Assembly: GCF_054482595.1 (NCBI RefSeq)
Contig: NZ_CM137008.1
Length of the DNA: 64,000 nucleotides
Strand: one strand, 5' to 3'
The position numbers and the translations under genes are program-made. Positions 9,052-57,472 of the stretch are shown here, piece after piece; positions within the stretch are counted from its first letter, which is position 1, and each line of letters opens with the position of its first letter. The notes beneath the pieces were generated by a model, which ran no database searches, was not told where the DNA came from, and was given only the letters and a program-made list of their open reading frames with translations.

Positions 9052-9058
9052 ACAGGTT

Positions 9059-11500: not shown

Positions 11501-12666
11501 TATTTCCCCTCCACTGCGGCAACAACCTGCTGAGCTGCATCCGTCAGACCTTTTGCTGCAATAATATTCAGGCCGCTGTCAGCCAGTTTCTTCGCGCCGA
11601 GTTCGGCGTTGTTACCTTCCAGACGTACCACGACCGGTACGTTAACACCCACTTCCGCTACCGCGCCGATGATACCGTCAGCGATCAGGTCGCAACGAAC
11701 GATACCGCCGAAGATGTTAACCAGAACGGCTTTCACTTTGTCGTCAGAGAGAATGATTTTGAACGCTTCGGTTACACGTTCTTTGGTTGCGCCGCCGCCA
11801 ACGTCCAGGAAGTTAGCCGGTTCGCCGCCGTGCAGTTTAACGATGTCCATCGTACCCATCGCCAGACCTGCGCCGTTAACCATACAACCGATGTTACCGT
11901 CCAGCGCAACGTAGTTCAGTTCCCACTGTGCAGCCTGTGCTTCACGTGAATCTTCCTGCGACTGGTCACGCATTTCGCGCAGATCAGGCTGGCGGAACAG
12001 TGCGTTGCCATCAGCGCCCAGTTTGCCGTCGAGGCAAATCAGATCGCCCTGTTTGGTAATGACCAGCGGGTTGATTTCGATCAGCGCTAGGTCGCGCTCC
12101 AGGAAAATGGTCGCCAGGCCCATGAAGATTTTGGTGAACTGCTGAACCAGTTTACCTTCCAGACCCAGTTTGAACGCCAGCTCGCGTCCCTGATACGGCA
12201 TCGGGCCAGTCAGCGGATCAAGCGCAACTTTATGGATCAGGTGCGGAGTTTCTTCCGCCACTTTTTCGATTTCCACGCCGCCTTCGGTGGAGGCCATAAA
12301 GACCACACGACGGGAACTACGGTCTACAACGGCACCGAGATACAGCTCTTTAGCGATATCGGTCGCTGCTTCAACCAGAATCTGGTTAACCGGTTGGCCA
12401 TTGGCATCTGTTTGATACGTTACCAGACGCTTGCCGAGCCAGTTTTCTGCAAAAGCACGGATGTCTTCTTTGCTGTTTACAACTTTCACACCGCCCGCTT
12501 TACCGCGGCCACCAGCGTGAACCTGACATTTCACTACCCACGGACCGGCACCGATTTTTGAAGCGGCTTCTTCTGCTTCGCGCGGAGTAGTACAGGCATA
12601 ACCCACCGGTGCTGGTAAGCCATAGCGGGCAAACAGTTGTTTTGCCTGATATTCATGTAAGTTCAT
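11500..12666 (-). CDS. sucC: Succinyl-CoA synthetase beta subunit
   Basis: 388 aa, [61 protein letters not shown]...; 1-nt overlap with the sucD start. Confidence 0.97.
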
Positions 12667-14249: not shown

Positions 14250-14263
14250 TGTGTATCCTTTAT

Positions 14264-18097: not shown

Positions 18098-19864
18098 TTA
18101 GTAAGTACGAATCTTCGGCGGGAATGCCGGGCGCAGTTTCGGTTCCATGTTGACGCTTCGGCGCGTCATGGATTCCGACTCTGGCAGATACAGGGAGTGG
18201 CACAGCCAGTTTTCATCATCGCGATCCGGGAAGTCGAAGCGGCTATGTGCGCCACGGCTTTCGGTACGGAAGTTGGCAGAAACAGCCGTTGCATACGCCG
18301 TTTCCATCAGGTTATCCAGTTCCAGACACTCAACGCGCTGGGTGTTGAACTCGCTGGAAGTGTCATCCAGACGGGCATTTTTCAGACGCTCGCGGATAAC
18401 TTTCAACTGCTCAAGCCCTTTCGCCATCGCATCACCTTCACGGAAGACCGAGAAGTTATGCTGCATACATTCTTGCAGCGCTTTACGGATCGCAACCGGA
18501 TCTTCACCGTTACGGTTGTTGTTCCAGCGGTTCAGGCGATCCAGAGACGCTTCTACATCAGACTCGCTGGCATCGCGCAGTGCGCCCTGCTCGGCGATAG
18601 ACTCTTGCAGATGCAGGCCAGCAGCGCGACCAAAGACCACCAGGTCCAGCAGCGAGTTACCGCCAAGACGGTTAGCGCCGTGTACCGATACACAGGCAAT
18701 TTCACCCACCGCGAACAGCCCCGGAACAACCACATCTTCGCCTTTCTCATTCACAGTCAGCGCCTGACCGGTAACTTTGGTCGGAATACCGCCCATCATG
18801 TAGTGACAGGTTGGGATAACCGGAATCGGCTCTTTCACCGGATCAACGTGAGCGAAGGTACGGGAAAGCTCCAGGATACCCGGCAGACGGGATTCGAGAA
18901 CTTCTTTACCCAGGTGATCGAGTTTCAGTTTCGCGTGTGGCCCCCACGGACCATCACAGCCGCGACCTTCACGGATTTCGATCATGATGGAACGCGCCAC
19001 CACATCACGGCCCGCCAGGTCTTTGGCGTTCGGCGCATAACGCTCCATAAAGCGTTCGCCATGTTTGTTCAGCAGATAACCGCCTTCACCACGGCAACCT
19101 TCGGTGACCAGTACGCCCGCACCGGCAATGCCGGTCGGGTGGAATTGCCACATTTCCATATCCTGCACCGGTACGCCTGCGCGGATAGCCATGCCGACAC
19201 CGTCGCCAGTGTTAATGTGGGCGTTAGTGGTGGACTGATAAATACGCCCTGCCCCGCCAGTCGCCAGCACGGTAGCGCGGGCTTTGAAATAAACCACTTC
19301 ACCGGTTTCGATGCACAGTGCGGTACAACCCACCACCGCGCCATCCTGGTTTTTCACCAGATCCAGCGCATACCACTCGGAGAAAATGGTGGTGTGGTTT
19401 TTCAGGTTCTGCTGATAAAGCGTGTGCAACAGTGCGTGACCGGTACGGTCAGCCGCTGCCGCAGTGCGTGCCGCCTGCTCGCCGCCGAAGTTTTTCGACT
19501 GACCGCCAAACGGACGTTGATAGATACGACCATCATCGAGACGCGAGAACGGCAGGCCCATGTGTTCGAGTTCCAGAATCGCTTCCGGCCCGGTTTTACA
19601 CATATATTCAATCGCGTCCTGGTCACCGATATAGTCCGACCCTTTCACGGTGTCGTACATATGCCATTCCCAGTTATCTTCATGGGTATTACCCAGCGCA
19701 ACGGTAATGCCGCCTTGCGCAGAAACGGTATGGGAACGGGTCGGGAAGACTTTAGAGAGCAGCGCACAGGTCTGGCCGCTCTGGGAAATTTGCAGCGCCG
19801 CGCGCATACCTGCGCCGCCGGCACCAATCACAACTGCATCAAATTCTCTGACTGGCAATTTCAT
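18098..19864 (-). CDS. sdhA: Succinate dehydrogenase flavoprotein subunit
   Basis: Start set at [23 protein letters not shown]... (588 aa, matching E. coli SdhA as recalled); the listed ORF adds 4 upstream codons. The start ATG overlaps the sdhD stop. Confidence 0.96.
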
Positions 19865-20211
19865 CACACACCCCACACCACAACGAATCCATAAATCACG
19901 TAAACCACCAGTGCAACGACAATCACCAGTTGCAGCATCAGGCGCAAAGCCAGCGGTTTAACGTAGTCGGTCAACACCTGCCACATGCCGATCCAGGCAT
20001 GGATCAAGATAGAAAACAGCGCCAGCAGGGTGAACACTTTGGTGAACGCAGAGGCGAAGAAACCGATCCAGACTTCATATGTCAGCTCGCCACTGGTGGC
20101 GAAAAAACCGACCATATAAATGATGTAGAGCGTCAGGACGATAGCGGTAGCGCGAACGAGGATGAAATCATGTACGCCATTGCGTCCTAATGCGGAGGCG
20201 TTGCTTACCAT
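19864..20211 (-). CDS. sdhD: Succinate dehydrogenase membrane anchor subunit
   Basis: 115 aa hydrophobic protein; position and overlap in the sdhCDAB operon. Confidence 0.95.
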
Positions 20212-20594
20212 ACGAGGACTCCTGCGAGAAGTGAAAGCACGACAGTAATAACAAAGGAGATTTTGGCGGAGCGTTTACCCGCTTCGAATGTTTCTTCCAG
20301 ATAGCCAAAATCCATCATCATGTGGCGAATACCTACGACGACGTGATACGCCAGAGCGGTAAGGATGCCCCACATGATAAATTTGACGAAGAAGCTGCCC
20401 ATAATCGCGGAAGCTTGCTCGAAACCTTCAGGGGAAGAGAGGCTGGTACCCAGAAGCCACAGCAGGATACCCACTGCAACAAAGGTGATCACACCGGAAA
20501 CGCGATGGAGAATGGACGCTATCGCCGTGATGGGGAACCGGATGGTCTGTAGGTCCAGATTAACAGGTCTTTGTTTTTTCACATTTCTTATCAT
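20205..20594 (-). CDS. sdhC: Succinate dehydrogenase cytochrome b556 subunit
   Basis: Start set at [34 protein letters not shown]... (129 aa); the listed ORF adds 5 codons upstream. Confidence 0.93.
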
Positions 20595-21302
20595 GAATAA
20601 CGCCCACATGCTGTTCTTATTATTCCCTGGGGACTACGGGCACAGAGGTTAACTTTCTGTTACCTGGAGACGTCGGGATTTCCTTCCTCCGGTCTGCTTG
20701 CGGGTCAGACAGCGTCCTTTCTATAACTGCGCGTCATGCAAAACACTGCTTCCAGATGCGAAAACGACACGTTACAACGCTGGGTGGCTCGGGATTGCAG
20801 GGTGTTCCGGAGACCTGGCGGCAGTATAGGCCGTTCACAAAATCATTACAATTAACCTACATATAGTTTGTCGGGTTTTATCCTGAACAGTGATCCAGGT
20901 CACGATAACAACATTTATTTAATTTTTAATCATCTAATTTGACAATCATTCAACAAAGTTGTTACAAACATTACCAGGAAAAGCATATAATGCGTAAAAG
21001 TTATGAAGTCGGTATTTCACCTAAGATTAACTTATGTAACAGTGTGGAAGTATTGACCAATTCATTCGGGACAGTTATTAGTGGTAGACAAGTTTAATAA
21101 TTCGGATTGCTAAGTACTTGATTCGCCATTTATTCGTCATCAATGGATCCTTTACCTGCAAGCGCCCAGAGCTCTGTACCCAGGTTTTCCCCTCTTTCAC
21201 AGAGCGGCGAGCCAAATAACAAACGGGTAAAGCCAGGTTGATGTGCGAAGGCAAATTTAAGTTCCGGCAGTCTTACGCAATAAGGCGCTAAGGAGACCTT
21301 AA
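20595..21302. promoter_or_regulatory. Divergent gltA / sdhCDAB control region
   Basis: 708-bp AT-rich non-coding spacer between the divergent gltA and sdhC starts. That this region carries the gltA and sdh promoters with ArcA/CRP/Fnr/Fur control is established knowledge; individual sites were not mapped here. Confidence 0.7.
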
Positions 21303-34844: not shown

Positions 34845-36263
34845 TTATTTCCCCTTCCGCGCCGCCTCATACGCTGCCAACGTTTGTACTCTCGCCTCTT
34901 TGTGCTCGACTATCGGTTGCGGATAATCCAGCTTCACACCTGCTTTCTCAGCCCACTTCCACGGCTCATGCACCGATTTCCCCGGTACATTGCGCAGTTC
35001 CGGTAGCCACTGGCGGATAAACTCGCCTTCGCGGTCAAATTTCTCGCCCTGGGTTGTCGGGTTGAAAATACGAAAATACGGCGCTGCATCAGTACCCGTA
35101 GAAGCCGCCCACTGCCAGCCACCGTTATTGGCTGCCGAATCACCATCAATCAGCTGCGACATGAAATATCGCTCGCCTTCGCGCCAGTTGATCAACAAAT
35201 CTTTCACCAGAAAACTGGCTGTAATCATCCGTAGCCTGTTATGCATCCAGCCAGTGCTGTTAAGCTGACGCATGGCAGCATCGACAATCGGGTATCCCGT
35301 TTTGCCTTCCTGCCAGGCCTGTAAATGTGCGGGATTGCTCTGCCACTGCACACGATCCGTCCAGGCAATAAATGGACGATGTTTACACAACGAGGGGTGA
35401 TACGTTATCAGGTGACGGTAAAACTCGCGCCAGATCAGCTCATTAAGCCAGACACTACCGGCCCCACCGTCCAGCGCCTGCGGCTGTTCCGCCAACAGGC
35501 GATGCAAACACTGGCGAGGTGATAACCCGCCCGTTGCCAGGCTGGCGGACAAACGGCTGGTGCCTTCCACTGCCGGAAAATCTCGTTGTTGCTCATACTC
35601 TCCGGCACCGTTCTGGCAAAACTGGCGTAATTGCGCAATCGCCGCTTTTTCTTCCACCGGGAAATGCGCAGTATCGAAAGACTGACGAGGATAATTTAGC
35701 GTAATGGATGGCGCGGGCTTTATCGATCCGCTACTACGAACTTTTGGTGCAGCGACGCACTCCGGCATCCCTTCCCGCAGCCGTTTCAGCCAGGCATTCT
35801 TAAAAGGCGTAAAGACTTTGTACATCTCGTGATTGCCAGTCATCACCGCCCCCGGCGGCAGGATCACGCTGTCATCAAATCCTTCACACACCACGTTACG
35901 CAGCGCTCTTTCAACGTCCACATCCCGCGCCCGCTCATTCACCTCATACTGATAGTTATAAAAAAGATGAGTAACGCTGTTTTCCGCGCACACCTGTTTA
36001 ACTAATTCGACGCTGGCGACAAAGTCATCCACTTCACGGAACAATAAAGGAATACCTTTTTCCGCCAGCGCGATTTGTAGCCCGTTCAGTTGAGCATTGA
36101 TAAGTTCAGCCTGACGCGGCGACATATTATGCGCCGCCCACTGGCGTGGTGTAGCGATATACAACGCCAGCACGCGTGCAGACGAATTGCGGCAGGCGGC
36201 AGCCAGCGCGAGATTATCGTGCAGACGTAAATCCTGGCGAAACCAGACCAGATGGGTAGTCAT
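34845..36263 (-). CDS. phr: Deoxyribodipyrimidine photolyase
   Basis: 472 aa, MTTHLVWFRQDLRLHDNLALAAACRNSSARVLALYIATPRQWAAH... Confidence 0.96.
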   Translation of the reverse strand: MTTHLVWFRQDLRLHDNLALAAACRNSSARVLALYIATPRQWAAHNMSPRQAELINAQLNGLQIALAEKGIPLLFREVDDFVASVELVKQVCAENSVTHLFYNYQYEVNERARDVDVERALRNVVCEGFDDSVILPPGAVMTGNHEMYKVFTPFKNAWLKRLREGMPECVAAPKVRSSGSIKPAPSITLNYPRQSFDTAHFPVEEKAAIAQLRQFCQNGAGEYEQQRDFPAVEGTSRLSASLATGGLSPRQCLHRLLAEQPQALDGGAGSVWLNELIWREFYRHLITYHPSLCKHRPFIAWTDRVQWQSNPAHLQAWQEGKTGYPIVDAAMRQLNSTGWMHNRLRMITASFLVKDLLINWREGERYFMSQLIDGDSAANNGGWQWAASTGTDAAPYFRIFNPTTQGEKFDREGEFIRQWLPELRNVPGKSVHEPWKWAEKAGVKLDYPQPIVEHKEARVQTLAAYEAARKGK

Positions 36264-36769
36264 AAAACTCCTGAATGGCGCAAGTTAATCACACGCGGCC
36301 AAAGTTCGAAATAACGCTGCCCTGAAAGCCAGGCGTCAGGATAAAGCGCCATATAGTGTTTGATACGCATCAGCGGCGCAAGAAGCGGTTGCTCGCCACG
36401 GCGATAACTGTCGATAAGCGCTGCCAGCTGCTGGCGTTCTGTGGAATCAATATGCGGGCGAAAATAACCCTGAACGTGCATCAAAACGTTGGTGTGATCT
36501 CGCGGGTTGGCAGGATGAGAAAGCAAAACAATTACGCGTTGGTAGTACTGGTTGTAATAGTCATCCAGATTTTGCCACCGATGAATATCAGCCACAAACG
36601 GGCCAAGTTTGCGGTATTCCGGCTGGGAATGCGCCAGAAAGACGAGTTTATAGCGGCTGTGATAATCGAGAAGCGCCCCGCGCGTTAAGCCTCGCTCTTT
36701 AAGACGGTGTAACTCCTGCAAAGCAAAAATGCGGATAAGGGTGCTGTCATCAAATCGTTGTAGATTCAT
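36260..36769 (-). CDS. ybgA: DUF1722 protein, co-transcribed with phr
   Basis: 169 aa; 4-nt overlap with the phr start. Confidence 0.9.
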   Translation of the reverse strand: MNLQRFDDSTLIRIFALQELHRLKERGLTRGALLDYHSRYKLVFLAHSQPEYRKLGPFVADIHRWQNLDDYYNQYYQRVIVLLSHPANPRDHTNVLMHVQGYFRPHIDSTERQQLAALIDSYRRGEQPLLAPLMRIKHYMALYPDAWLSGQRYFELWPRVINLRHSGVL

Positions 36770-36942
36770 TACTGCTCCTGAACGGTTTACAGGAGTAAGT
36801 GTAGACGATGGTAAATGAATTTTGTGGGGTTATGCTTTCTTCCCTACCAAGCTGTTATATCCAGTTCAAAAACAATCATTTTACATCATCATCAAAGCAG
36901 CGAATACTTGACCGATTGGTAGTACCGCTGCATATTTCACCA

Positions 36943-37200
36943 TCAATTATATTTTATAATTTGTTGTATTGCTGACTTTATATTGCCAATGACATCCTCA
37001 TCATTAAATTCATTTAATATATTTTTTAGAATAGGATGTAGTTTAATATCACCTAAAATACCTGCCAAAATAATAACTTCATCAAAAATTATGTTTTTTT
37101 GCAGTTCATAAATTATAGCAGTTATAACACGATTATCTTTTCTTTCTGCCAGTCCGCTTATAGCTTCAATTCTGGCACAATCATTCTTATCTGTCAGCAT
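36943..37200 (-). CDS. Hypothetical 85-aa ORF with HEAT/PBS-lyase-like repeat character; possibly a gene fragment
   Basis: AT-rich ORF just downstream of the H-rpt transposase gene; repeat-like segments (ARIEAISGLAERKDNRVITAIIYELQ). Weak support. Confidence 0.3.
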   Translation of the reverse strand: MLTDKNDCARIEAISGLAERKDNRVITAIIYELQKNIIFDEVIILAGILGDIKLHPILKNILNEFNDEDVIGNIKSAIQQIIKYN

Positions 37201-37212
37201 TCCAGGGCAAGA

Positions 37213-38349
37213 TTACGAAAGCCCGCTCCCCGCAAGGACTGACGCCAGATAGTTTCTGTCCATGGCTGCTTTTCGCATCTTACGTCTTAACCCTGCCTTG
37301 AATACCTTATCATTCGTCAAAATATTAATAGCAATGTGCCGTATCCCTGAAAATAATTCTGCTGCATTTCCTCTTCTTATTTTGCAGTCGTCTTCATTCA
37401 TTACCACGTCCAGACGCCAGTGCAGCTTATTCTCCACGTGCCAGTGGTTTCGGATTGCTGTGGCGAACTTCTCTGCGGTTAAATCAGCAGAACTGATATA
37501 ATATCTGACCGTCATTTCTGGCTCTTTCTTTTGTTCTGCTATTATGGACCGAAAGGAGACTGCCACGCATAATTTCTTCAGCCCTTTCCATTCAAACGTG
37601 AAATCAATAAGTTCATCAGGGACATCGCAAACATTATGAAGACGGATCTCTTCTCTGCCGTGACTCTTTTCACTCATTGCGTAACTGTCATGCTCTGGAT
37701 TATTTAATTCTTTCAGTGGAAATTTTTCCTCAAAGGCTTTATTAAGCCGCCCCTGATTTCCTTTTACAGCGAATAAATAATCACCGCCCTGTTTTTGTAT
37801 CTTCTCTGCGATATCTTTCTGGCAACCCATCGCATCAGTTGTGATAATTTTTCCTTTAATATCCAGCATGTTAAGAAGTTCAGGGATAGCTGTAATCTCA
37901 TTAGATTTCTCATCCGTCTTGATCTGTCCGATGACCAGACTGTGCATTGTTGAGAACGCACTAATGACATGAATCGCTCCCCTGCGGCGACTCTTGTCAT
38001 AAGAGTGCCGGAGCGTTTTTCCATCAATTGCAATGACGTCTTTATCATCTGAAGAATGGCAGTCACGCATCCAGTTAATAAAGCACTCGTGAAATTTTGC
38101 AGGACTGATACAGGATACAACTCTGGCAATGGTATCGTGAACAGGAATACCATTTTCAAAATCACCATATTGCTTCAAAAAATCGAGATGTGTTTCCCCA
38201 AAATCCTCTATATCTTCCCAGCCTTCTGCACCAGAAATAACGGCACAAATAGTCAACAGTAGAATATCCGATAATTTATGCTCCACTTTCCAGGCTTGTC
38301 TGTAATCAGGGATAATAGAAATATGTTCCATCAATTTTTTAAGTTCCAT
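37213..38349 (-). mobile_element. H-rpt (H repeat-associated) element of an Rhs locus: intact 378-aa ISAs1-family transposase-like ORF
   Basis: 378 aa, [64 protein letters not shown]... matches the YhhI/H-rpt protein family; element ends not determined. Confidence 0.85.
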
Positions 38350-38987
38350 TTTGTTCTCCTTAATTATGTAAGGAGTATTTGATCATGTATAAGCAATAAA
38401 AAACAGCTTCAGGTAATGAGGAATATCTCAATTTTTAAACATAAAATGCGAATTATTTAGTACAAAAAGTGAACTTCTGATGATCTTTCCCTGTGATTGC
38501 TTCCCGTTTCCCGATACGGCGGCGCGGGGAGTCATAAAGGTAAGAAATTTCCAGCAGTACAGCGTCCTATTGTTCACGGCGGTAATGCACCAACCAGTAT
38601 TGGCTATCGTAGTGATAACCGTGTAACCTGCCGCCGCATCGCGTATCTAATGTTCATTCTTTTCCATAAACCGTCCGTACACATTGTGATAGTAAAAATA
38701 CAATACATCTTCGCTGATGCGGTTATTCTGCTGCATGTGGGGAGCGCCGAATACTGCTCCCGGTATGGCCAGTAATTACTATTTAGTACGACGTTAGGGG
38801 GAGTCACTTAATCTCACAGATACTTCAAGTAACAGATGAAAATCGCTCCTGAAATGAAAAAAGAAATTTTTTTGAATGTGTTCCTGTCAAATCAAGTGGT
38901 TTTTTCGTCGATATGTAGAGTCATATTGTACACAAAATTGTTACGAAACACACCTTGGTAAAATATTTGAATCGACTGTACAGTGGA

Positions 38988-39290
38988 TTATTTTGTGTGT
39001 ATTACATTCAACACTTGCCCATCTTTTTTCGCTATTAGTATTGTAAAATTTCCTCCTAAAGTCTTCGGTTGTTTTCCCTCGATTTTCCAACAATTATTGT
39101 CATCTGTAATACTATATGGTTTCTGAAATTCTGCTTTTTCTTTCCCGTATACATATTTAATGTAAACATATGATAATTCCAAAGCCATTTCACGACTATT
39201 TACTAAAATTTCCACTGGATTTTCTTTTCCAAATACTTGTTATGATATTGTAAACAATATCATAATAAGTAATATTAGTGAGTTTCTCAT
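38988..39290 (-). pseudogene. Small secreted-protein ORF interrupted by an in-frame TAA at codon 17 (plus-strand 39240-39242)
   Basis: From ATG (39288-39290, minus strand) the frame reads MRNSLILLIMILFTIS-TAA-QVFGKENPVEILVNSREMALELSYVYIKYVYGKEKAEFQK...HTK. A signal-peptide-like N-terminus continues in the same frame across a single stop. Confidence 0.5.
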
Positions 39291-39458
39291 GTTCTACACC
39301 TATCGAATCTCAAAAGCTGTGGGTAAAACATTACATTCAGAATATATGATATTCTTACCATCGGAATCCATTTTTCCAAATCGACCTTCTGGTGTACCTG
39401 GATATCCATTAAGAACATGTTTTTCCGAATGGTTAATTTATTCTCTCAGGAAGATGTT

Positions 39459-40028
39459 TTATTTTTCTTCACTACGAAGCAGTTCATGCTGTATTTTTGT
39501 TAAACATTCGTAAGACTCATCTTTGTTCGGGAGATGTGCTGTCATTCGAGCATAAGTTGGCTTCTCATCTTTAAAATATTTAACCATGATTGAATTATCA
39601 AGGACTGCCAACAACTGAGCTGGATCACTGCTCTTTTTTTGATAGATACCCGCTCTTATATAACTTCTAAACCGATCGCCGAGAAACGCCGTTTTTTCTG
39701 CTGTATTTATCAACTCCTGCAACGTTCCTTTGATGGCATGATTTTCATTAAGGCGTAGTGACCCGACACGAATTAAGAGTCTCGCCCCGCTTGATGTGAA
39801 TTTATTATTTTTACATGTACCCAGTTCTGTTTGCCAATAATACTCACCGATGTCCTCATTCTGATACCATCTCCACATGGCTTTATTATTTAAGACAGGA
39901 AACGCGGAAAAAATAGTACCCTTAGCGAAAATAGTAAAACAATCATGATCTTTAGCTTGTATTTCGCAATCAGCTATAACACCAAAATTAACAAATATCA
40001 TCAGCAAAAAGAACAAAACTCTTTTCAT
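39459..40028 (-). CDS. Putative Rhs immunity protein (periplasmic; signal peptide)
   Basis: 189 aa, [19 protein letters not shown]|DCEIQ...; its ATG overlaps the rhs stop (ATGA); AT-rich like the Rhs C-terminal tip. It may correspond to K-12 ybfC, but this was not verified. Confidence 0.65.
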
Positions 40029-43000
40029 TTTCTTATTCCTCTCGATGTTCTCTGTTTCATTTTAGCTAAAATTTCACCCAAATCATCTATCCCTGCTGTT
40101 GCTGGCCCATCGGGTTTATTAATGTCTGGGAATAAATAGGGTTCTGCACAAGTATATCCTGGTGGTAATTGAGTTGTTGGCCAATTTGTCTGTGGCAGGT
40201 AATCACTTGCTGTCTTTGTATCCATCCCTGGATACTGGGGATCATCCTGTGGCGTACAAGTCAGATTTGGTTTTACCCACTTCCTGCAATACAGTGTGTA
40301 GTCGTAAGGGCTTAATGCTCTGAAGAATGTTTTGAAAACATTAGGCGCACTACTGGCCTGGTCAATAGGATATGGCAGTCTTAATTGTTTCGCTATGTCT
40401 GGCAATTTACTTGGATCGGGCGTAGGCGGTTTGTTGGGTCTCGCTCCATATCCGCCATTATTTAAGTGTCCATATTTTGATGCCAGTCCCATTGAATCTA
40501 TATACTGAACCGGATTCAACGGATACTGATAAAAATTCCATCCCCCCTTCAGTCCAATCGGATCCTGAGTGATATACCTCCCCTGCAGCGGGTCATAATA
40601 GCGGTGGCGGTTGTAATACAGGCCGGACTCCTCATCATACTGCTGACCCGGCAGGCGGATGAGCTGCTGCAGCTGGTGCGGGTTCTCTTCATTCAGCTGG
40701 TTACCCCATTCATCGTATTCTGCGTACCACGCTGTTGTCCCTTCCGTGCTGATAAGCGCCAGCGGCAGGCCGCGATGGTCGCAGTGGTACAGGTGGATTT
40801 TTCGCGCCGGCGTGTACACCGGGTCCATCTGGTTTTGCATCTGCTTCACCGTCAGGCCGCACGATGCCAGCCAGCGGCGGCTTTCCTCACTCACCCGGTC
40901 AGCCAGGATTTCACTTTCCAGCCGGTCGAGCATCTGCACCAGCACCGGCGGGAACACCACACTGCCACCGTCTTCACCGCCGGACTGCTGAAGGGCATCC
41001 GCCAGGCTGCGGCGCTGCGTTCTGGCCAGTTCACCGGTGGCAGTTTCAACTCTGATGAGTGGTGTGAAGCTCCCCGGCTGATAAATCGTCTGGATGCGGG
41101 TTCTGTCGTTCTGTATCGTGGTCAGGCGGTCGCCATCCCAGCCGTACCAGGTCACTTGCGGTTTCCGTGACAGCGACATCCAGCCCGTCAGGTCCCGTTC
41201 ACGTCGCCATACCCGTTTTGCCACCCTGCGGCCCAGCGGGTCGTAAAGATAGCGGCTTTCGACCAGCGGCTCTGCATATTGTGTCCGCGTGTAGTGCACC
41301 AGCCGGTGCTGACTGTCGTAATGGTACCGGTGGGTGCGCTCATCATCCGTGCGGATAACCCCTTCCGGGATGAGGTCGGTTTTCTCTGTCAGTCTGCCGT
41401 GACGGTCATACCGGTAAAGATAGTGCGCGTCACGGGCGATACGGTTATCCGGCCACATGCTGAGGGTGCTGTCCGGGTGCAGCTCCGGGTCGGGCAGGCG
41501 GTTACCTGCCGGGTCCGTGGCATACGGGATGCGGATATCAAGGTTCGCTGCCGTGGTGTGAACGCCGGTCAGCCTGCCGGAGTCGCTGTAGCTGTAACTC
41601 CGGGTATGGCGCGGGCTGCTGATGCGGATGAGTTCGCCGTTGTCGTTCCAGGTGTAATCGCGGTCAGACTGCAGGCTGTTCAGGTGCTGGCTCTGTAACT
41701 GCCCGGCAGGGGTATAAGCGGTGGTGAGTTCATAATGGCCGAAGCTGCGCAGCGTTTCCCGGTGCAGGCGGTCGCGGGTGAAATCCACCAGCGGTGTGTC
41801 GCCGAGCTTCATGCCTGACAGCCAGCCGCTGCCGTAGGTCAGCCATTCCACGGCGGGCAGGCTGTCCGGTATACAGCGGTTCGCCAGCCCCTGCGCGTTG
41901 TAAGCGTGTCTGGTCTCATGCTGCCAGAGCAGTGCTTCCGTCTGCGGGTGATGCACCGTCTGACGCTCACCGGTCAGGCGGCCTTTCTCATCATACCTGT
42001 AATGCACCGCTACCCGGTGCCCTTCGCTGATATGGCTGATGTCTGTCAGCCAGCCACGTTCGTCATACCGCCACCGCTCTGCGGTTTCACCCTTCACGGT
42101 GCGGTGCGTGAGGCGGTCTGCTTCGTCATAGTGCCAGTGGGTGACCAGACCCTCATCCTCGCTGCGGATAAGTTTGCCGGTCAGGTCGTGGTGATAATGC
42201 TGTGTGCGGCCGTCAAAGCCGGTTTCCTGTATCAGCCGGTCGAGTACATCGTAACGGAAGGTGGTGTGGCTGCCGTTTTCACTGGTCAGGCGGATGACCC
42301 GTCCGGCAGCATCGTATTCCATACTGCGCGTCAGACCGCCCTGCGTGGTACGGATGGCCTTTCCCCACGCATCGTACTGTGTCCCGTTTCTGCTGCCGTC
42401 CGGAGCAATGACGGCGGTCAGGTCACCGGCGGCGTTGTATTCATACCGCATTTCATGGCCCTGCATGTCTTTCACGGCAATTAACCGTCCACGGCTGTCG
42501 TATGCGCGGTACTGACTCAGCCCTTCCTCGCGGTGCACCGCCGTCATCTGCCCGAAACGGTCATGGTCATAACGGGTTACATAACCGGAACAGTCGGTGA
42601 AGCTCAGCAACTGGCCGTAACGGCTCCACGTCATGGTTTTCCGGCTGCCGGTGGCATCGTCCGTTGCGCAGGGTAAGTCACTGTGTGGATTATCATAACG
42701 GTAGCGGGTGATATCGCCGTCAGGGGCGGTTTCCTGAATCAGACGGCCGGATTCATCATATTCCCGGCGCATTTCCAGCCCGTCAGGCCCGGTGGCTGAC
42801 GTTAACTGGCTGTGGTGGTTATAGTAAAATGCCGATGCCCTGCCATCCGGTGTGGTGATGCGCGTGATGAGTCCCGTCACCACATCCGGGCTGTATTCTG
42901 TTGTCCGGCCTGCGGCATCCGTCTGTGCCTTAAGCCTGCCCACCGCATCAAACTGACTCTGCGTGACGCTGCCGTCCGCGTGTTCCTTTTTCACCACCCG

Positions 43001-44224
43001 CTTCAGCCCGCCTTCGCCCTGCGTGTGCAGCACTTCACGGCGGTCCAGGCTGTCGGTGATGGTGATGCGGTTTTGCTCATAACAGTAGGTGTAGCTTAAG
43101 CCCGCCGGGTTAAGCTGCTCTGTCACCCGCCCGTCGCTGTCGTAACGGTAACGGATTTCCGGTCGGCCCGTGTGACGGTGCGCCACCATCCGGCCCCGGT
43201 ATTTATCATCGTAAGTAAAGCTGCGCACCTGTGTATTGCTGCGGTCATACACCGCCGCCAGTTCGCCGCGTGGCGTCCAGCCATAGCGCACCAGCGGCGC
43301 GGCTGGCAGGTTGTCCGGGTATTCCGGGTCGTGCGTCAGCCACACGGCAGACAGACGGATGCCGTTGTCCCGGCCATATTCGGTGTAACCCGGCAGGGTA
43401 TCAGGAAAAGCGGACGGTTCCGTCCCGCCGGAAGAGGCCTGCTGCCGGGCTTCTTCTGCCCGCTGCGCCTGCGTGGTCAGTACCAGCCGGAAGTGACGCC
43501 CGGCACCATCCGTCACGCCGGTGATTTCGCCGCTGAATTCACCGGCGGCTTCGCGGTGGAACGTCTGTGTGCGCCCGAAGCGGTCCACCAGCCCGGTCAG
43601 TACCCGGTACGGCGGCAGCGGCGCAGGCAGCACCTCATCCGCTTCCGGCACCCGCTCACACCAGCCGAGCAGCCACCACGGCCCCTGCGGACTGTTTGTC
43701 GCCAGATAACGATGCGGACTTAAGCGGAGTTCTTCCGGCAGCGCCTGCCAGAGTGCGGCCAGCCGGTGACCTTCATCCAGTTTCGCCACGCCGCCGCGCA
43801 CCAGCCACAGTGACTCGCTGCGGCTGTAACCGTCCTCACCGGGAAACAGGTGCTCAAAATACAGGCTTCTGCCGCCGTTATCACTGAGTATCAGTGTGTT
43901 ATCGCGCAGCTGTAAGCGGATATCCGCAGGCATTTTCCAGCCGGGGCCGAGGCTCCCCACCGGCGCGGGCGTTTTTGTCCGGTAACTGCTGTAGGTGCGG
44001 GAGAGAATGAACGGCAGCGGGGCGGGCAGGGCGATGTCGGTTTCACCGGGAAGGACCTTTGCACCGAGCAGCGGATTGACCGGATGGCCGGACGTCACCC
44101 CGCCGGGGCACACCGAACAGGCCACGCCGGTGGGGGCACCAATACGTACCCCGGCTGAACCCTGGACAATGCTACCGCCATACTGCGTCATGTCGCCCTG
44201 ACGCGCCGCCGGTTTTCCGCTCAT
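40025..44224 (-). CDS. rhsC: Rhs family protein (RhsC-type): PAAR-like N-terminus, YD-repeat shell, variable C-terminal toxin tip
   Basis: 1399 aa, [42 protein letters not shown]...; many YD/RYxYD repeats; core ends near ...[16 protein letters not shown] (40484-40498), followed by a 152-aa AT-rich tip (40028-40483). Confidence 0.93.
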
Positions 44225-44466
44225 CTGCTCATCCTTGTATTATCGGGTTATTTGTCCGCTGACAGGCAAAACCCTACAGATTTATAAGAAAGCCTTAAGT
44301 GAGATATCCGTCAGATAGAAACAATTAGGAAAATATTTATATATATTTCATGAATATATGTTTCGATTGGTATAACGGTGTCTAAATATTCCTCTGAACA
44401 TCTTCCTGATACAAAAAACCGCCAGCGTTTCCGCTGGCGGTTTTCAATGTATTCAGAACTCAGCAA

Positions 44467-44673
44467 TCAATAAAAATCACCGGTTGCCTTTTCGGCCTGA
44501 TCCATCCACACCGGTTTATCGCTGGTTTTCGACCAGACGCGATGCAGGTAGCTGTAAAAGCGGGCGCGGTCTTTCCAGAAAAGCATGAAAGGCAGCGCCA
44601 GAACGCCCGCTGCAACCGCATAAGTACGGCGTAAAAAGATAAGCCATGCTGGATATTCTCTGTAGAGTTCCAT
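44467..44673 (-). CDS. ybfA: DUF2517 small protein
   Basis: 68 aa, [68 protein letters not shown]. Confidence 0.9.
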
Positions 44674-44885
44674 ACTTTTCTCCCCCTTTTGTATCTACCC
44701 GGTGAATGGCACCGGAAAATGAATTTGTTTATCTGATGAAAATAGTACCGCCTTTTGTGTAATTTTACTACTCATCCGACCACTTATTTTTGCTTATTGA
44801 TGGTTTATTTACATTCACCCTGTAATTAAGTTACACAAAAGTTAAATTAATACTAAACATTAGTTAAATCATGGCTTTTGCCATT

Positions 44886-44908
44886 TTTATACTTTTTTTA
44901 CACCCCGT
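44886..44908 (+). promoter_or_regulatory. KdpE response-regulator binding site in the kdpFABC promoter
   Basis: TTTATA-N5-TTTACA direct half-sites within catttttatactttttttacaccccg, about 80-100 nt upstream of kdpF; matches the KdpE operator as I recall it. Confidence 0.65.
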
Positions 44909-44984
44909 CCGCAGATTTTTGCGAAATCTTTGCAGCCAGAATTCTACCCTTCCGGTATCACTTTTAGGCCACTGGAGGTGCACT

Positions 44985-45074
44985 GTGAGTGCAGGCGTGA
45001 TAACCGGCGTATTGCTGGTGTTTTTATTACTGGGTTATCTGGTTTATGCCCTGATCAATGCGGAGGCGTTCTGA
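44985..45074 (+). CDS. kdpF: K+-transporting ATPase small subunit KdpF
   Basis: 29 codons from a GTG start: (M)[28 protein letters not shown]; stop overlaps the kdpA ATG (TGATG). Confidence 0.85.
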
Positions 45075-46747
45075 TGGCTGCGCAAGGGTTCTTACTGATC
45101 GCCACGTTTTTACTGGTGTTAATGGTGCTGGCGCGTCCTTTAGGCAGCGGGCTGGCGCGGCTGATTAATGACATTCCTCTTCCAGGTACAGCGGGCGTTG
45201 AACGCGTACTCTTTAGCGCGCTTGGCGTCTCTGACCGTGAGATGAACTGGAAGCAGTATCTCTCAGCCATTCTTGGCCTGAATATGCTGGGGCTGGCGGT
45301 GCTGTTTTTTATGTTGCTCGGTCAGAACTATCTGCCGCTTAATCCGCAACAACTGCCGGGGCTGTCGTGGGATCTGGCGCTGAATACCGCCGTCAGCTTT
45401 GTCACCAATACCAACTGGCAAGCTTACAGCGGTGAAACCACGTTGAGCTATTTCAGCCAGATGGCGGGTTTAACGGTGCAAAACTTTCTTTCTGCCGCCA
45501 GCGGGATTGCGGTGATTTTTGCCCTCATCCGCGCGTTTACCCGCCAGAGCATGAGCACACTCGGGAATGCCTGGGTCGATCTGCTACGCATCACGTTATG
45601 GGTGCTAGTCCCTGTGGCGTTGTTGATCGCACTGTTTTTTATTCAACAAGGTGCGCTGCAAAACTTTCTGCCCTATCAGGCAGTGAATACCGTTGAAGGA
45701 GCGCAACAGCTGTTACCCATGGGGCCAGTAGCTTCTCAGGAAGCGATCAAGATGCTCGGTACTAACGGCGGTGGCTTCTTTAATGCCAACTCGTCGCATC
45801 CGTTTGAAAACCCAACCGCACTGACCAACTTCGTGCAGATGCTGGCGATCTTCTTGATCCCAACAGCGCTGTGCTTTGCCTTTGGTGAAGTGACGGGCGA
45901 TCGCCGCCAGGGGCGCATGTTGCTGTGGGCGATGTCAGTGATTTTTGTCATCTGCGTAGGCGTGGTGATGTGGGCAGAAGTTCAGGGTAATCCTCATCTG
46001 CTGGCGCTCGGCGCAGACAGCAGCATCAATATGGAAGGTAAAGAGAGCCGTTTCGGCGTGCTGGTCAGTAGCCTGTTTGCGGTCGTGACTACGGCGGCGT
46101 CCTGTGGCGCGGTGATTGCGATGCATGATTCGTTTACCGCTCTCGGTGGCATGGTGCCGATGTGGCTGATGCAAATTGGTGAAGTGGTATTCGGCGGTGT
46201 CGGTTCTGGTCTTTACGGCATGATGCTGTTTGTCCTGCTGGCGGTGTTTATTGCCGGGCTGATGATTGGTCGTACACCGGAATATCTGGGTAAAAAAATC
46301 GACGTACGTGAGATGAAACTGACTGCACTGGCGATTCTGGTCACCCCGACGCTGGTGCTGATGGGCGCGGCGCTGGCAATGATGACCGACGCCGGACGTA
46401 GCGCCATGCTCAACCCTGGCCCGCATGGTTTTAGCGAAGTGCTGTACGCCGTGTCATCCGCCGCTAACAACAACGGCAGCGCCTTTGCCGGATTAAGCGC
46501 CAACTCTCCGTTCTGGAACTGTTTACTGGCGTTCTGCATGTTTGTCGGTCGCTTCGGGGTGATTATCCCGGTGATGGCAATTGCCGGTTCGCTGGTGAGT
46601 AAAAAGAGCCAACCCGCCAGCTCCGGCACGCTGCCAACGCACGGCCCGCTGTTTGTTGGCCTGTTAATCGGCACCGTGTTGCTGGTTGGCGCACTGACCT
46701 TTATCCCTGCCCTGGCGCTTGGTCCGGTGGCGGAATATCTCTCCTGA
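45074..46747 (+). CDS. kdpA: K+-transporting ATPase subunit A
   Basis: 557 aa from [38 protein letters not shown]...; the listed ORF is extended upstream. Confidence 0.96.
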
Positions 46748-46769
46748 TGATATTGAGTGAGCACTGAAT

Positions 46770-48818
46770 ATGAGTCGTAAACAACTGGCGCTATTCGAAC
46801 CAACACTTGTCGTTCAGGCGCTGAAAGAAGCGGTGAAAAAATTAAACCCGCAGGCGCAATGGCGCAATCCGGTGATGTTTATCGTCTGGATCGGCAGTCT
46901 GCTGACCACCTGTATTAGCATCGCGATGGCAAGCGGTGCGATGCCCGGCAATGCGCTGTTTAGCGCGGCCATTAGCGGTTGGCTGTGGATCACCGTACTG
47001 TTCGCTAATTTCGCCGAGGCGCTGGCAGAAGGCCGCAGTAAAGCGCAGGCCAACAGTCTGAAAGGGGTGAAAAAAACTGCTTTTGCTCGCAAGCTGCGCG
47101 AACCGAAATATGGCGCTGTGGCAGACAAAGTTCCTGCCGATCAACTGCGTAAAGGTGACATCGTGCTGGTAGAAGCTGGCGATATTATCCCCTGCGATGG
47201 TGAAGTCATTGAAGGCGGCGCATCGGTCGATGAAAGCGCCATCACCGGGGAATCGGCACCGGTGATCCGTGAATCCGGTGGCGATTTTGCCTCCGTCACT
47301 GGCGGCACGCGTATTCTTTCTGACTGGCTGGTGATTGAGTGTAGCGTTAACCCCGGCGAGACATTTCTGGATCGGATGATCGCGATGGTGGAAGGCGCAC
47401 AGCGACGTAAAACGCCGAACGAGATTGCCCTGACCATCCTGCTGATTGCCCTGACTATCGTCTTTTTACTGGCAACCGCCACGCTGTGGCCGTTTTCTGC
47501 GTGGGGCGGTAATGCAGTCAGTGTAACGGTACTGGTGGCGCTGCTGGTCTGTCTGATCCCAACCACTATTGGCGGCCTGTTGTCAGCGATCGGCGTCGCC
47601 GGGATGAGTCGGATGCTGGGCGCGAATGTGATTGCCACCAGCGGACGTGCAGTTGAAGCGGCAGGTGACGTTGACGTTCTGCTGCTGGATAAAACCGGCA
47701 CCATCACACTCGGTAACCGTCAGGCATCGGAGTTTATCCCTGCGCAGGGCGTGGATGAAAAAACGCTGGCTGACGCCGCACAACTGGCTTCGCTGGCTGA
47801 TGAAACGCCGGAAGGCCGCAGTATTGTGATCCTCACCAAGCAGCGTTTTAACCTGCGCGAGCGCGATGTGCAGTCGCTCCATGCCACCTTTGTACCGTTT
47901 ACTGCGCAAAGCCGGATGAGCGGGATCAACATCGACAACCGCATGATCCGTAAAGGTTCTGTCGATGCCATTCGCCGCCATGTTGAGGCTAACGGTGGTC
48001 ACTTCCCTGCCGATGTTGATCAAAAAGTCGATCAGGTTGCGCGTCAGGGGGCCACGCCGCTGGTGGTGGTGGAAGGTTCTCGTGTGCTGGGCGTTATTGC
48101 GCTGAAAGATATCGTTAAAGGCGGCATTAAAGAACGCTTCGCGCAACTGCGCCAAATGGGCATTAAAACGGTGATGATTACCGGCGATAACCGTCTGACT
48201 GCCGCCGCGATAGCTGCAGAAGCGGGCGTCGATGATTTCCTCGCCGAAGCGACACCGGAGGCCAAGCTGGCATTGATTCGTCAGTATCAGGCGGAAGGTC
48301 GTTTGGTAGCGATGACCGGCGACGGCACCAACGATGCTCCGGCGCTGGCGCAAGCAGATGTCGCGGTGGCGATGAACTCCGGTACTCAGGCGGCGAAAGA
48401 AGCGGGCAATATGGTGGATCTCGACTCTAACCCGACCAAGTTGATCGAGGTGGTGCACATTGGCAAACAGATGCTGATGACCCGTGGCTCGCTGACCACC
48501 TTCAGCATTGCCAACGATGTGGCGAAATACTTCGCCATTATTCCGGCGGCGTTCGCGGCAACGTATCCGCAGTTAAATGCGCTGAACATCATGCGCCTGC
48601 ATTCGCCCGACTCCGCCATTCTCTGTGCGGTCATTTTCAACGCCTTGATTATCGTCTTTTTGATTCCCCTGGCGTTAAAAGGTGTGAGTTATAAACCGCT
48701 TACCGCTTCTGCCATGTTGCGCCGTAAGTTATGGATTTACGGTCTGGGTGGGCTGCTGGTGCCGTTTATTGGTATCAAAATCATTGATTTACTGCTGACC
48801 GTTTGCGGTCTGGTGTGA
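46770..48818 (+). CDS. kdpB: K+-transporting P-type ATPase subunit B
   Basis: 682 aa, P-type ATPase motifs ([23 protein letters not shown]). Confidence 0.97.
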
Positions 48819-48826
48819 GGTTTACC

Positions 48827-49399
48827 ATGCGTGGATTACGTCCGGCGTTATCGACATTTATCTTTCTGTTATTGATTACTGGCGGCGTTTACCCGCTGCT
48901 GACCACCGCGCTGGGGCAATGGTGGTTTCCCTGGCAGGCCAACGGTTCGTTGATCCGTGAAGGTGATACGGTGCGCGGTTCGGCATTAATCGGGCAGAAT
49001 TTTACCGACAACGGCTATTTTCAGGGTCGCCCGTCGGCAACGGCAGAAATGCCCTATAATCCACAGGCTTCTGGCGGGAGCAATCTGGCAGTCAGTAACC
49101 CGGAGCTGGATAAACAGATAGCCGCACGCGTTGCCGCATTACGGGCCGCTAACCCGGATGCCAGCACGAGCGTTCCGGTTGAACTGGTGACGGCATCGGC
49201 AAGCGGGCTGGACAATAACATCACCCCACAAGCGGCGGCCTGGCAGATCCCACGCGTAGCGAAAGCGCGTAATCTCAGCGTTGAACAGCTCACGCAACTG
49301 ATCGCAAAATACAGCCAACAACCACTGGTGAAATATATCGGCCAGCCGGTCGTCAACATTGTCGAACTCAATCTGGCGCTGGATAAACTTGATGAATAA
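48827..49399 (+). CDS. kdpC: K+-transporting ATPase subunit C
   Basis: 190 aa from [27 protein letters not shown]...; the listed ORF is extended upstream. Confidence 0.93.
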
Positions 49400-52076
49400 C
49401 GAACCCTTACGTCCCGACCCCGATCGTCTGCTGGAACAAACTGCCGCGCCGCATCGGGGGAAGCTGAAAGTTTTCTTCGGTGCCTGTGCAGGCGTCGGGA
49501 AGACCTGGGCGATGCTGGCGGAAGCCCAGCGACTGCGGGCGCAAGGGCTGGATATTGTGGTTGGCGTGGTAGAAACCCACGGGCGGAAAGATACCGCCGC
49601 AATGCTGGAAGGGCTGGCTGTTCTGCCGCCAAAACGCCTGGCGTACCGTGGGCGGCACATCAGCGAGTTTGATCTCGATGCTGCCCTCGCCCGCCGTCCG
49701 GCGCTGATCTTAATGGACGAACTGGCGCACAGTAATGCGCCAGGTTCTCGTCATCCTAAACGCTGGCAGGATATCGAAGAACTGCTGGAAGCTGGCATTG
49801 ATGTTTTCACAACCGTCAACGTTCAGCATCTGGAAAGTCTGAATGATGTGGTCAGCGGCGTCACCGGAATTCAGGTACGGGAAACCGTGCCCGATCCTTT
49901 TTTCGATGCCGCCGACGACGTGGTGCTGGTGGACTTGCCCCCGGACGATCTGCGCCAGCGGCTGAAAGAAGGCAAAGTCTATATTGCCGGGCAGGCGGAG
50001 CGCGCCATTGAACATTTTTTCCGCAAAGGCAATCTGATCGCCCTGCGCGAACTGGCACTGCGCCGTACTGCCGATCGCGTTGATGAGCAAATGCGCGCCT
50101 GGCGGGGGCATCCTGGCGAAGAGAAAGTCTGGCACACGCGCGACGCGATCCTTTTATGCATCGGCCATAACACCGGCAGTGAGAAACTGGTCCGCGCGGC
50201 GGCGCGGCTGGCGGCGCGGCTGGGTAGCGTCTGGCACGCGGTGTATGTTGAAACCCCTGCCCTGCATCGCTTACCGGAGAAAAAACGTCGGGCAATTCTC
50301 AGCGCCTTACGTCTGGCGCAGGAGCTGGGCGCGGAGACGGCAACACTTTCTGATCCAGCGGAAGAGAAAGCGGTAGTGCGTTATGCCCGTGAACATAATC
50401 TCGGCAAGATTATTCTCGGTCGCCCAGCCTCGCGCCGCTGGTGGCGTCGGGAAACGTTTGCTGACCGACTGGCGCGCATCGCCCCCGATCTCGATCAGGT
50501 GCTGGTCGCGCTTGATGAACCACCCGCCCGCACGATTAACAACGCGCCGGATAGCCGCTCTTTTAAAGACAAGTGGCGGGTACAGATTCAGGGATGCGTG
50601 GTTGCCGCCGCGTTATGCGCCGTTATCACCTTAATTGCCATGCAGTGGCTGATGGCGTTTGATGCCGCCAACCTGGTGATGCTGTATCTACTTGGCGTGG
50701 TGGTGGTGGCGCTATTTTATGGACGCTGGCCTTCGGTGGTTGCTACCGTCATTAATGTGGTGAGTTTCGATCTCTTTTTTATCGCCCCACGCGGCACGCT
50801 CGCCGTCTCTGATGTGCAATATCTGCTGACCTTCGCGGTGATGTTAACCGTCGGGCTGGTGATCGGGAACCTTACTGCGGGTGTGCGTTATCAGGCACGG
50901 GTAGCCCGTTACCGCGAGCAACGCACACGGCACTTATATGAAATGTCGAAAGCTCTGGCGGTGGGCCGCAGTCCGCAGGACATCGCCGCCACCAGCGAAC
51001 AATTTATTGCCTCCACGTTTCATGCCCGCAGTCAGGTGTTGTTGCCCGATGACAACGGTAAATTGCAGCCGTTAACACATCCGCAAGGAATGACGCCGTG
51101 GGACGATGCCATCGCGCAGTGGAGTTTTGATAAAGGCCTGCCTGCGGGTGCGGGCACCGACACGTTACCCGGCGTGCCGTACCAGATTTTGCCGTTAAAA
51201 AGCGGTGAGAAAACCTACGGGTTGGTGGTGGTGGAACCGGGGAATCTGCGCCAGTTGATGATCCCGGAACAGCAGCGCCTGCTGGAGACGTTTACGCTGT
51301 TAGTCGCCAATGCGCTTGAGCGGCTGACGCTGACCGCCAGCGAAGAACAGGCGCGGATGGCAAGCGAACGTGAACAGATCCGCAACGCCCTGCTGGCGGC
51401 GCTTTCGCATGATTTACGCACTCCGCTCACGGTGTTGTTCGGTCAGGCAGAAATCTTAACGCTCGATCTGGCAAGCGAAGGATCACCCCACGCCCGCCAG
51501 GCCAGCGAGATTCGTCAGCATGTGCTGAACACTACCCGACTGGTGAATAATCTACTGGATATGGCGCGAATTCAGTCCGGCGGCTTTAATTTGAAGAAAG
51601 AGTGGTTAACGCTGGAAGAAGTAGTCGGCAGCGCGCTGCAAATGCTGGAACCGGGTTTATCGTCGCCCATCAATCTTTCTCTGCCAGAACCGCTGACCTT
51701 AATCCACGTTGACGGGCCACTCTTTGAACGGGTGCTGATTAATTTGCTGGAGAACGCAGTGAAATATGCGGGTGTGCAGGCCGAAATTGGTATCGATGCC
51801 CACGTTGAGGGCGAAAATCTACAACTGGATGTCTGGGATAACGGCCCCGGACTTCCGCAAGGCCAGGAGCAGTCGATTTTTGATAAGTTTGCTCGTGGGA
51901 ATAAAGAGTCGGCAGTCCCGGGTGTAGGGCTTGGGCTGGCAATTTGTCGGGCGATTGTGGATGTACACGGCGGCACCATTACCGCGTTCAACCGACCGGA
52001 AGGTGGTGCCTGTTTTCGTGTTACACTTCCCCAGCAAACCGCTCCTGAACTTGAAGAATTTCATGAGGATATGTGA
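49392..52076 (+). CDS. kdpD: Sensor histidine kinase KdpD
   Basis: 894 aa from [42 protein letters not shown]...; overlaps the kdpC end by 8 nt. Confidence 0.96.
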
Positions 52077-52750: not shown

Positions 52751-52761
52751 GGGCTGAATTG

Positions 52762-52858
<97 letters not shown>

Positions 52859-52870
52859 AGTCATAAGTAA

Positions 52871-52901: not shown

Positions 52902-52912
52902 ATTTAATGTGT

Positions 52913-57399: not shown

Positions 57400-57472
57400 C
57401 TCAAGAGCAAATTCTGTCACTTCTTCTAATGAAGTGAACCGCTTAGTAACAGGACAGATTCCGCATGACTGA
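57386..57472 (+). CDS. uof: uof leader peptide, translationally coupled to fur
   Basis: 28 codons, MIRIISRANSVTSSNEVNRLVTGQIPHD, ending 8 nt inside fur; matches the known upstream-of-fur ORF as recalled. Confidence 0.7.
   Translation: MIRIISRANSVTSSNEVNRLVTGQIPHD

Follow-up and report, generated by a model that had tools for sequence, protein, structure and literature searches.

Overlapping start and stop codons are a long-known way of packing genes in Escherichia coli operons and belong to textbook knowledge. Among native E. coli gene pairs spaced at -4 nt, four of five were found to be strictly coupled in translation, with a role of the Shine-Dalgarno (SD) sequence that differs between pairs (PMC6728339), and coupling is lost once the spacing reaches about 20 nt (PMC10666635). 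Here we analyze the gene junctions in a 64,000-nt stretch of contig NZ_CM137008.1 (NCBI RefSeq assembly GCF_054482595.1), referred to as the window, for which an initial annotation had reported frequent start/stop codon overlaps indicating translational coupling. The overlaps are real, and very likely they represent normal E. coli intra-operon junctions at which the downstream gene is coupled to the upstream one by termination-reinitiation. While the overlap geometry of the initial annotation stood, published work shows or suggests coupling for no more than one or two of the pairs, and for most of them we infer it.

Spacing was computed for all 54 pairs of neighboring genes. Co-directional pairs number 45, and 14 of them overlap, by 1, 4, 7, 8 or 11 nt. 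All 13 co-directional overlaps named in the initial annotation were present both in recomputed open reading frame (ORF) coordinates and in the RefSeq PGAP coding sequences (CDS), and a 14th, uof/fur, was added to them. The curated annotation of E. coli K-12 MG1655 gives an identical overlap length at every junction common to both strains. The junctions are listed below, together with a pair of small ORFs annotated in K-12 only.

2281..2285 (+): glmE stop and mal start; 1-nt overlap, TAATG, shared base 2283
4895..4898 (+): AtuA (DUF1446) stop and DUF4387 start; 4-nt overlap, ATGA
11498..11502 (-): sucC stop and sucD start; 1-nt overlap, TAATG, shared base 11500
19861..19866 (-): sdhD stop and sdhA start; 1-nt overlap, TGATG, plus a tandem in-frame TGA, shared base 19864
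20205..20211 (-): sdhC stop and sdhD start; 7-nt overlap, ATGGTAA
26791..26794 (+): ybgP (chaperone) stop and ybgO (fimbrial subunit) start; 4-nt overlap, ATGA
30595..30605 (-): pxpC stop and pxpA start; 11-nt overlap
31521..31527 (-): pxpB stop and pxpC start; 7-nt overlap, ATGCTGA
36260..36263 (-): ybgA stop and phrB start; 4-nt overlap, ATGA
40025..40028 (-): Rhs core protein stop and ybfC start; 4-nt overlap, ATGA; presumed toxin/immunity pair
45072..45076 (+): kdpF stop and kdpA start; 1-nt overlap, TGATG, shared base 45074
49392..49399 (+): kdpC stop and kdpD start; 8-nt overlap, ATGAATAA
52073..52076 (+): kdpD stop and kdpE start; 4-nt overlap, GTGA
57465..57472 (+): uof leader peptide stop and fur start; 8-nt overlap
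21081..21097 (+): ybgU and ybgV small ORFs; 17-nt overlap, both intact in the window

Two details of the initial annotation had to be corrected. At sdhD/sdhA the overlap is present, but the motif is not the reported ATGA: the coding strand reads GTG TGA TGA AAT, the first TGA (19866-19864) ends sdhD and the sdhA ATG occupies 19864-19862, so that the two genes share 1 nt (TGATG). Including the second, tandem in-frame TGA is what produces the ATGA string. The overlaps had also been placed together within 19862-52076, a range that is wrong for sucC/sucD, glmE/mal and DUF1446/DUF4387, which lie at 2283-11500. The two small ORFs at 20990-21113 (+) encode YbgU of 35 amino acids and YbgV of 10 amino acids with a GTG start; PGAP annotates ybgU alone, as a "hypothetical protein".

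At these junctions the downstream start lies on the upstream stop codon or slightly within the upstream gene, whose final codons also carry its SD. In the mechanism proposed here, a ribosome ending the upstream ORF would be released beside the downstream start and could reinitiate there, aided to a varying degree by the embedded SD, so that output of the downstream protein would depend on synthesis of its upstream partner. Such coupling would suit partner proteins such as SdhCDA, SucCD, PxpBCA, KdpFA, the chaperone/subunit pair, the Rhs toxin/immunity pair and the sensor/regulator KdpDE. No junction leaves space for a promoter or terminator, so by geometry both ORFs would lie on one transcript. 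Thirteen of the 14 overlaps, at -1 to -8, have a spacing inside the coupling-competent range of about -8 to +10 nt. At 10 of the 14 junctions the anti-SD duplex reaches -6 kcal/mol or lower, the SD lying inside the upstream ORF.

Some of these junctions have been addressed in the literature. An sdhD::gfp fusion with 60 nt of upstream sequence gave background fluorescence only, and was active behind a translated lacZ'-sdhC' ORF (PMC1807950). This behavior is consistent with coupling, mRNA stabilization being an alternative explanation. Coupling of uof and fur is described in PMC11550727 and PMC6191717, where Vecerek 2007 is cited for it. The sucC/sucD pair has been called translationally coupled on the basis of its 1-nt overlap (PMC11751636), and this secondary statement was all that our literature search returned for sucCD; for the kdp junctions it turned up no experiments on coupling.

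The overlaps are not particularly abundant. A literature figure for K-12 was taken as the background rate: 707 of 2987 unidirectional E. coli pairs (24%) lie at -8..+6 nt and 820 at -8..+10 nt (Huber et al. 2023, PMC10666635). The corresponding counts in the window are 14 of 45 (31%, binomial p=0.16) and 16 of 45 (p=0.15), and within 19862-52076 they are 9 of 24 and 10 of 24 (p=0.09). An enrichment of overlaps over the genome was therefore rejected (p=0.15-0.16), and the "frequent" of the initial annotation amounts to the E. coli genome average. What is pronounced is the phasing, as 9 of 25 close pairs (-11..+25 nt) lie exactly at -1 or -4 vs 1.6 expected under uniform spacing (p=1e-5); this excess is the known phasing of such junctions. 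Known heteromer subunits account for 6 of 14 overlapping pairs vs 4 of 31 non-overlapping ones (Fisher p=0.035), a partner-protein bias in agreement with the genome-wide shares of 30.4% vs 6.8% (PMC10666635).

Overlaps of a few nucleotides could be artefacts of annotation, with the true starts downstream and the genes not overlapping at all, and the initial annotation had pointed to revised start codons as a way in which they might vanish. Each in-frame ATG, GTG and TTG from the 5' limit of the ORF to +150 nt was examined together with its anti-SD duplex energy. The idea draws on nearer in-frame starts in several genes (sdhA TTG +6, ybgO GTG +18, pxpC ATG +24, ybfC TTG +12 and ATG +27, kdpA GTG +42) and on the weak SDs at kdpD (-3.1 kcal/mol) and pxpA (-4.8 kcal/mol), to which fur (-4.0 kcal/mol) and mal (-4.2 kcal/mol) can be added. 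Against it, two independent annotations, RefSeq PGAP and curated K-12, concur on the starts, the SDs of alternative starts are much weaker, and starts in up to 79 other species align with the E. coli N-termini. The limits of Pfam and PDB homology, which begins at residues 1-11 for most downstream proteins, and the signal peptides likewise require the annotated starts. The annotated start has the best SD at all junctions except kdpE and kdpD. No plausible alternative start abolishes any overlap, and judged from start codons, SDs and homology the overlaps are not annotation artefacts; that they should be so after all is extremely improbable.

Individual genes bear this out. No alternative start lies within 150 nt in mal, with its Pfam MAAL_N match from residue 1, or in DUF4387 (SD AAGGAG, -8.3 kcal/mol; DUF4387 domain from residue 6). 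In sucD, sdhD, pxpA, phrB, kdpD, kdpE and fur one has to go 25-45 codons downstream to reach another start, whose use would delete part of a conserved domain, as the Pfam matches set in at residues 1-21. At 9 of the 14 junctions the closest such start would cost at least 25 residues of a Pfam domain. Thus sucD has the SD GGAGGGG (-9.8 kcal/mol) and a CoA_binding domain from residue 6, phrB has AGGAG (-6.9 kcal/mol) and a DNA_photolyase domain from residue 5, and sdhD has AGGAG (-6.9 kcal/mol) with its following start at +96. The LamB_YcsF domain of PxpA begins at residue 3 and the following start is at +117, while in kdpD the following start at +120 is already inside the KdpD domain, which begins at residue 21. 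For pxpC the SD AAGGAGGG gives -12.1 kcal/mol vs -2.5 for the ATG at +24 (codon 9), and PxpC homology to yeast and Mycobacterium smegmatis homologs begins at residues 2-3 (residue 2 for M. smegmatis). The kdpA start has the SD GGAGG (-9.5 kcal/mol), and alternatives at codons 15-18, the GTG at +42 being the nearest, are excluded because the KdpA domain starts at residue 11. YbgO (MRFAKGVLL...; SD -6.4 kcal/mol) and YbfC (MKRVLFF...) carry Sec-type signal peptides whose basic N-region requires the annotated ATG. The sole conceivable alternative among the downstream genes is the sdhA TTG at +6 (codon 3), which homology, beginning at residues 5-8, is unable to exclude; it would leave the conclusion unchanged because the resulting gap of 5 nt is still inside the coupling range. 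In kdpE the receiver domain begins at residue 4 and the ORF is limited at its 5' side at -6. An internal ATG at codon 26 of kdpE (52148, +) has an SD of -9.8 kcal/mol vs -6.1 at the annotated GTG. This internal ATG is probably unused, as initiation there would remove the first strand and acidic residues of the receiver domain.

Conservation of the sdh, suc and pxp junctions was followed across species-representative genomes scanned with SdhA. The 80 loci obtained, with 10-kb flanks, reach from Escherichia albertii via Yersinia, Photorhabdus and Pantoea to Aeromonas, Vibrio and Alteromonadales, and orthologs were found by tblastn and extended to stop and start codons. The sdhC/sdhD spacing is -7 (ATGGTAA/G) in 77 of 79 gammaproteobacterial species, and sucC/sucD is spaced at -1 (TAATG) in 57 of 66, the others showing -13, -4, 0, +2 or +3. 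In 32 of 32 species, pxpB/pxpC is spaced at -7 with AAGGAGGG kept, at protein identities as low as 54%. The pxpC/pxpA genes overlap in 26 of 26 species, by -11 in 18, by -4 in four and by -17, -14, -8 and -1 once each. Flanking junctions vary much more: ybgI/pxpB ranges from +11 to +3523 nt and pxpA/nei from -8 to +2605 nt across species. Between sdhA and sdhB there is mostly a spacer of +11 to +19 nt, which contains the SD. This pattern fits selection on the partner-gene junctions while neighboring spacers drift, and constraint on both overlapping protein termini could explain part of the conservation. At sdhD/sdhA the spacing in 79 species is -1 (26 species), 0 (36), +1 (11), -4 (2), +3 (3) or +6 (1), and in Vibrio-like taxa sdhA starts with GTG or TTG in place of ATG.

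Several observations weigh against coupling as the general explanation. What is conserved at sdhD/sdhA is tight abutment, the overlap as such drifting from -4 to +6. At -11, pxpC/pxpA is outside the -8..+10 range treated as predictive in PMC10666635, and longer overlaps weaken coupling in synthetic tests (PMC12548453). The bioB and bioF genes overlap and are yet uncoupled, so that an overlap is no proof of coupling (PMC6728339). The ribosome-binding site of sdhD is a predicted target of RyhB (PMC1807950), which would make this site separately addressable. Strong SDs at pxpC, sucD, kdpA and DUF4387 would permit independent initiation. Published experiments on these particular junctions concern sdhC/sdhD, indirectly, and uof/fur only. 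It is possible that the overlaps are real and neutral, by-products of compaction or codon turnover, with the downstream genes initiated independently from the usable SD that most of them have; the drift and the variable start codon at sdhD/sdhA, the bioB/bioF precedent and an overlap frequency that is merely the genome average all lean in this direction. Neutral by-products would not be expected to keep an exact spacing across the species counted above for sdhC/sdhD, sucC/sucD and pxpB/pxpC while neighboring non-partner junctions vary by hundreds of nucleotides, nor to be enriched among complex-subunit pairs. The background signal of sdhD::gfp in the absence of upstream translation and the coupling of four of the five tested E. 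coli pairs also speak against neutrality, which we regard as distinctly unlikely.

Another possibility is that the genes are coupled mainly via RNA unfolding, where the elongating ribosome opens a sequestered downstream site for a new 30S subunit and no reinitiation takes place. The two models are still debated (PMC12548453), and unfolding would suit overlaps as long as those at -8 and -11 as well as strong SDs. In the tested E. coli pairs 99 nt of upstream sequence was enough for coupling, which falls steeply with spacing (PMC6728339, PMC10666635), and these results make unfolding as the main route unlikely, leaving termination-reinitiation as the preferred mechanism. Very unlikely is a special role of single junctions, namely that ATGGTAA at sdhC/sdhD is fixed as a regulatory node, being a RyhB target site, or that the CTAG at the convergent abrB/nei junction is a selected device.

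The abrB (+) and nei (-) genes share CTAG at 29044-29047, exactly as the initial annotation had it. The abrB TAG occupies 29045-29047 and the nei TAG is the complement of 29044-29046, so the two stops share the central TA. The Nei zinc finger extends to the last residue, 263, and the AbrB Pfam domain ends 9 residues before the stop. A terminator pattern scan at abrB/nei gave 3 sites vs 2.1 expected from shuffles, none at or beyond either stop, and RNA folds flanking the junction were no better than shuffled ones (z = +0.29 and -0.37). An intrinsic or bidirectional terminator at this junction was rejected, as pattern scan and folds were within shuffle expectation. With CTAG shared by both stops there is no place for a terminator between the genes, and if both are transcribed each mRNA has to continue into the coding region of the other gene. 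The earlier suggestion that the 3' ends overlap as transcripts is thus sound provided that both genes are expressed, given the 4-nt CDS overlap and the lack of a terminator-like site.

Citrobacter youngae, the sole other retrieved locus with both genes, has the same 4-nt abrB/nei overlap as TTAG (TAA and TAG stops); abrB is absent from most SdhA-anchored loci. CTAG depletion is well known in E. coli, and the 64 kb contain 5 CTAG sites (421, 12087, 29044, 32101 and 45605) vs about 249 expected from base composition, while TTAA, TCGA and GATC occur 235-284 times each. The CTAG at abrB/nei is a curiosity and nothing more. If it were a selected device, expression of the ybgI-pxpBCA-nei DNA-repair operon and of abrB might be mutually antagonistic, e.g. 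via polymerase collision or RNase III cleavage of double-stranded 3' ends. Convergent pairs with overlapping bidirectional termination sites are prevalent in E. coli according to Ju et al. 2019, as cited in 10.1101/2022.10.23.513370. Pairs of this type, such as ynaJ-uspE, have a 3' transcript overlap like the one suggested at abrB/nei. The abrB/nei pair is unlike this type in that the coding regions themselves overlap and that neither a hairpin nor a pausing element was detected where they meet.

The rhs/ybfC pair had been presented as a gene overlapping with that of its immunity protein. The overlap is present, and the immunity label rests on position; such a role of YbfC would be a reasonable reading. 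The Rhs protein of 1399 amino acids has a DUF6531 domain, nine RHS_repeat matches and an RHS core-end domain at 1143-1179 (Pfam), and DPIGL is followed by a variable tip of about 220 amino acids. No Pfam family matched the tip or YbfC. The rhs gene of the window (38988-44224 region, -) combines the core of K-12 rhsC with the tip that in K-12 belongs to the orphan ybfO. In K-12, too, this tip is accompanied by ybfC, as ybfO-ybfC with an identical ATGA junction, and the K-12 rhsC tip and ybfB are absent from the window. The pair resembles Rhs toxin tip/immunity modules in its repeats, core-end domain, variable tip and small ORF at ATGA, and differs from them in a tip and a YbfC that are without a Pfam family and in the secretion signal of YbfC. 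Presumed immunity proteins do not usually carry a Sec-type signal peptide. At 38988-39215 (-), 243 nt beyond ybfC, there is an orphan Imm-NTF2-2 immunity gene, with no toxin gene called upstream.

The window is a segment of an E. coli chromosome and closely matches that of O157:H16 strain Santai. A 20-kb query, 19862-39862, is 100% identical to NZ_CP007592.1, and the entire window, which is the reverse complement of about 1040805-1104715 of that sequence, is collinear with it except for about 20 single-nucleotide polymorphisms (SNPs) and an 89-bp REP-type indel at about 17276-17344. Owing to this indel, Santai coordinates for 1-17344 were transferred via a local BLAST offset. RefSeq lists 55 CDS in the region, 53 of them complete, and after coordinate transfer 53 of 53 were intact ORFs, defined by a start codon, a stop codon and zero internal stops. 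The genes follow each other in three parts:

first part: glmL-glmE-mal-AtuA-DUF4387-symporter-fumarate hydratase-cobO, lysR, sucDCBA-sdhBADC (-), ybgU, gltA, ybgDQPO, abrB
second part: nei-pxpACB-ybgI (-), dtpD, phrB-ybgA (-), ISEc1, immunity genes, ybfC-rhs (-), ybfA, kdpFABCDE
last part: pgm-seqA, ybfF, ybfE, fldA, uof-fur, chiQP, glnS, nagE

Further differences from K-12 were seen. Positions 1-9964 hold a methylaspartate-pathway cluster (glmL, glmE, mal, AtuA/DUF1446, DUF4387, a dicarboxylate symporter, a class I fumarate hydratase, cobO and a divergent LysR gene), which sits where K-12 carries mngR-mngAB after sucD. An ISAs1-family ISEc1 (H-repeat) transposase gene at 36943-38349 (-) is followed 12 nt later by an ORF of 85 amino acids with no Pfam match; its K-12 counterpart position has the decayed H-repeat genes ybfQ/ybfL/ybfD. 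At 52750-52913 pgm stands directly 3' of kdpE, and the K-12 island ybfP-ybfG-ybfI-potE-speF-speFL, which has a 4-nt speF/potE overlap of its own, is absent from the strain.

An Rfam scan matched only REP325/naRNA4 copies and ES036, and gave zero matches at any overlap junction. The naRNA4 (REP325-type) copies at 17289-17359 (+) and at 12755-12825 and 12845-12915 (-) are in the sdhB-sucA and sucB-sucC spacers, and one of them, at about 17276-17344, makes up the 89-bp indel by which the window and strain Santai differ. The ES036 (CssrF) small RNA match at 34740-34782 (-) is within the 149-nt spacer of the convergent dtpD and phrB genes. The small RNA SdhX, at 10532-10630 (-) directly 3' of the sucD stop, aligns over 99 of 101 nt at 100% identity to K-12 and was not reported by the Rfam scan at gathering threshold.

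The gene starts of the window are well annotated, and the value of these results is chiefly in quality control. Exact junctions kept between partner genes, vs drifting spacers around them, agree with published genome-wide analyses and imply no new principle. Compared with known systems, uof-fur is like coupled pairs in that fur depends on uof being translated, and is unlike the partner pairs in that uof is a regulatory leader ORF. In spacing classes, embedded SD, partner enrichment and frequency, the junctions of the window are like the prokaryotic start/stop overlaps known for termination-reinitiation coupling, such as trpE/trpD, hyfH/I, astD/B, menD/H and ydbH/ynbE. To the prokaryotic overlap classes NTGA at -4, TAATG or TGATG at -1, and -8, the window adds -7 at two junctions and -11 at one, with no difference in kind.

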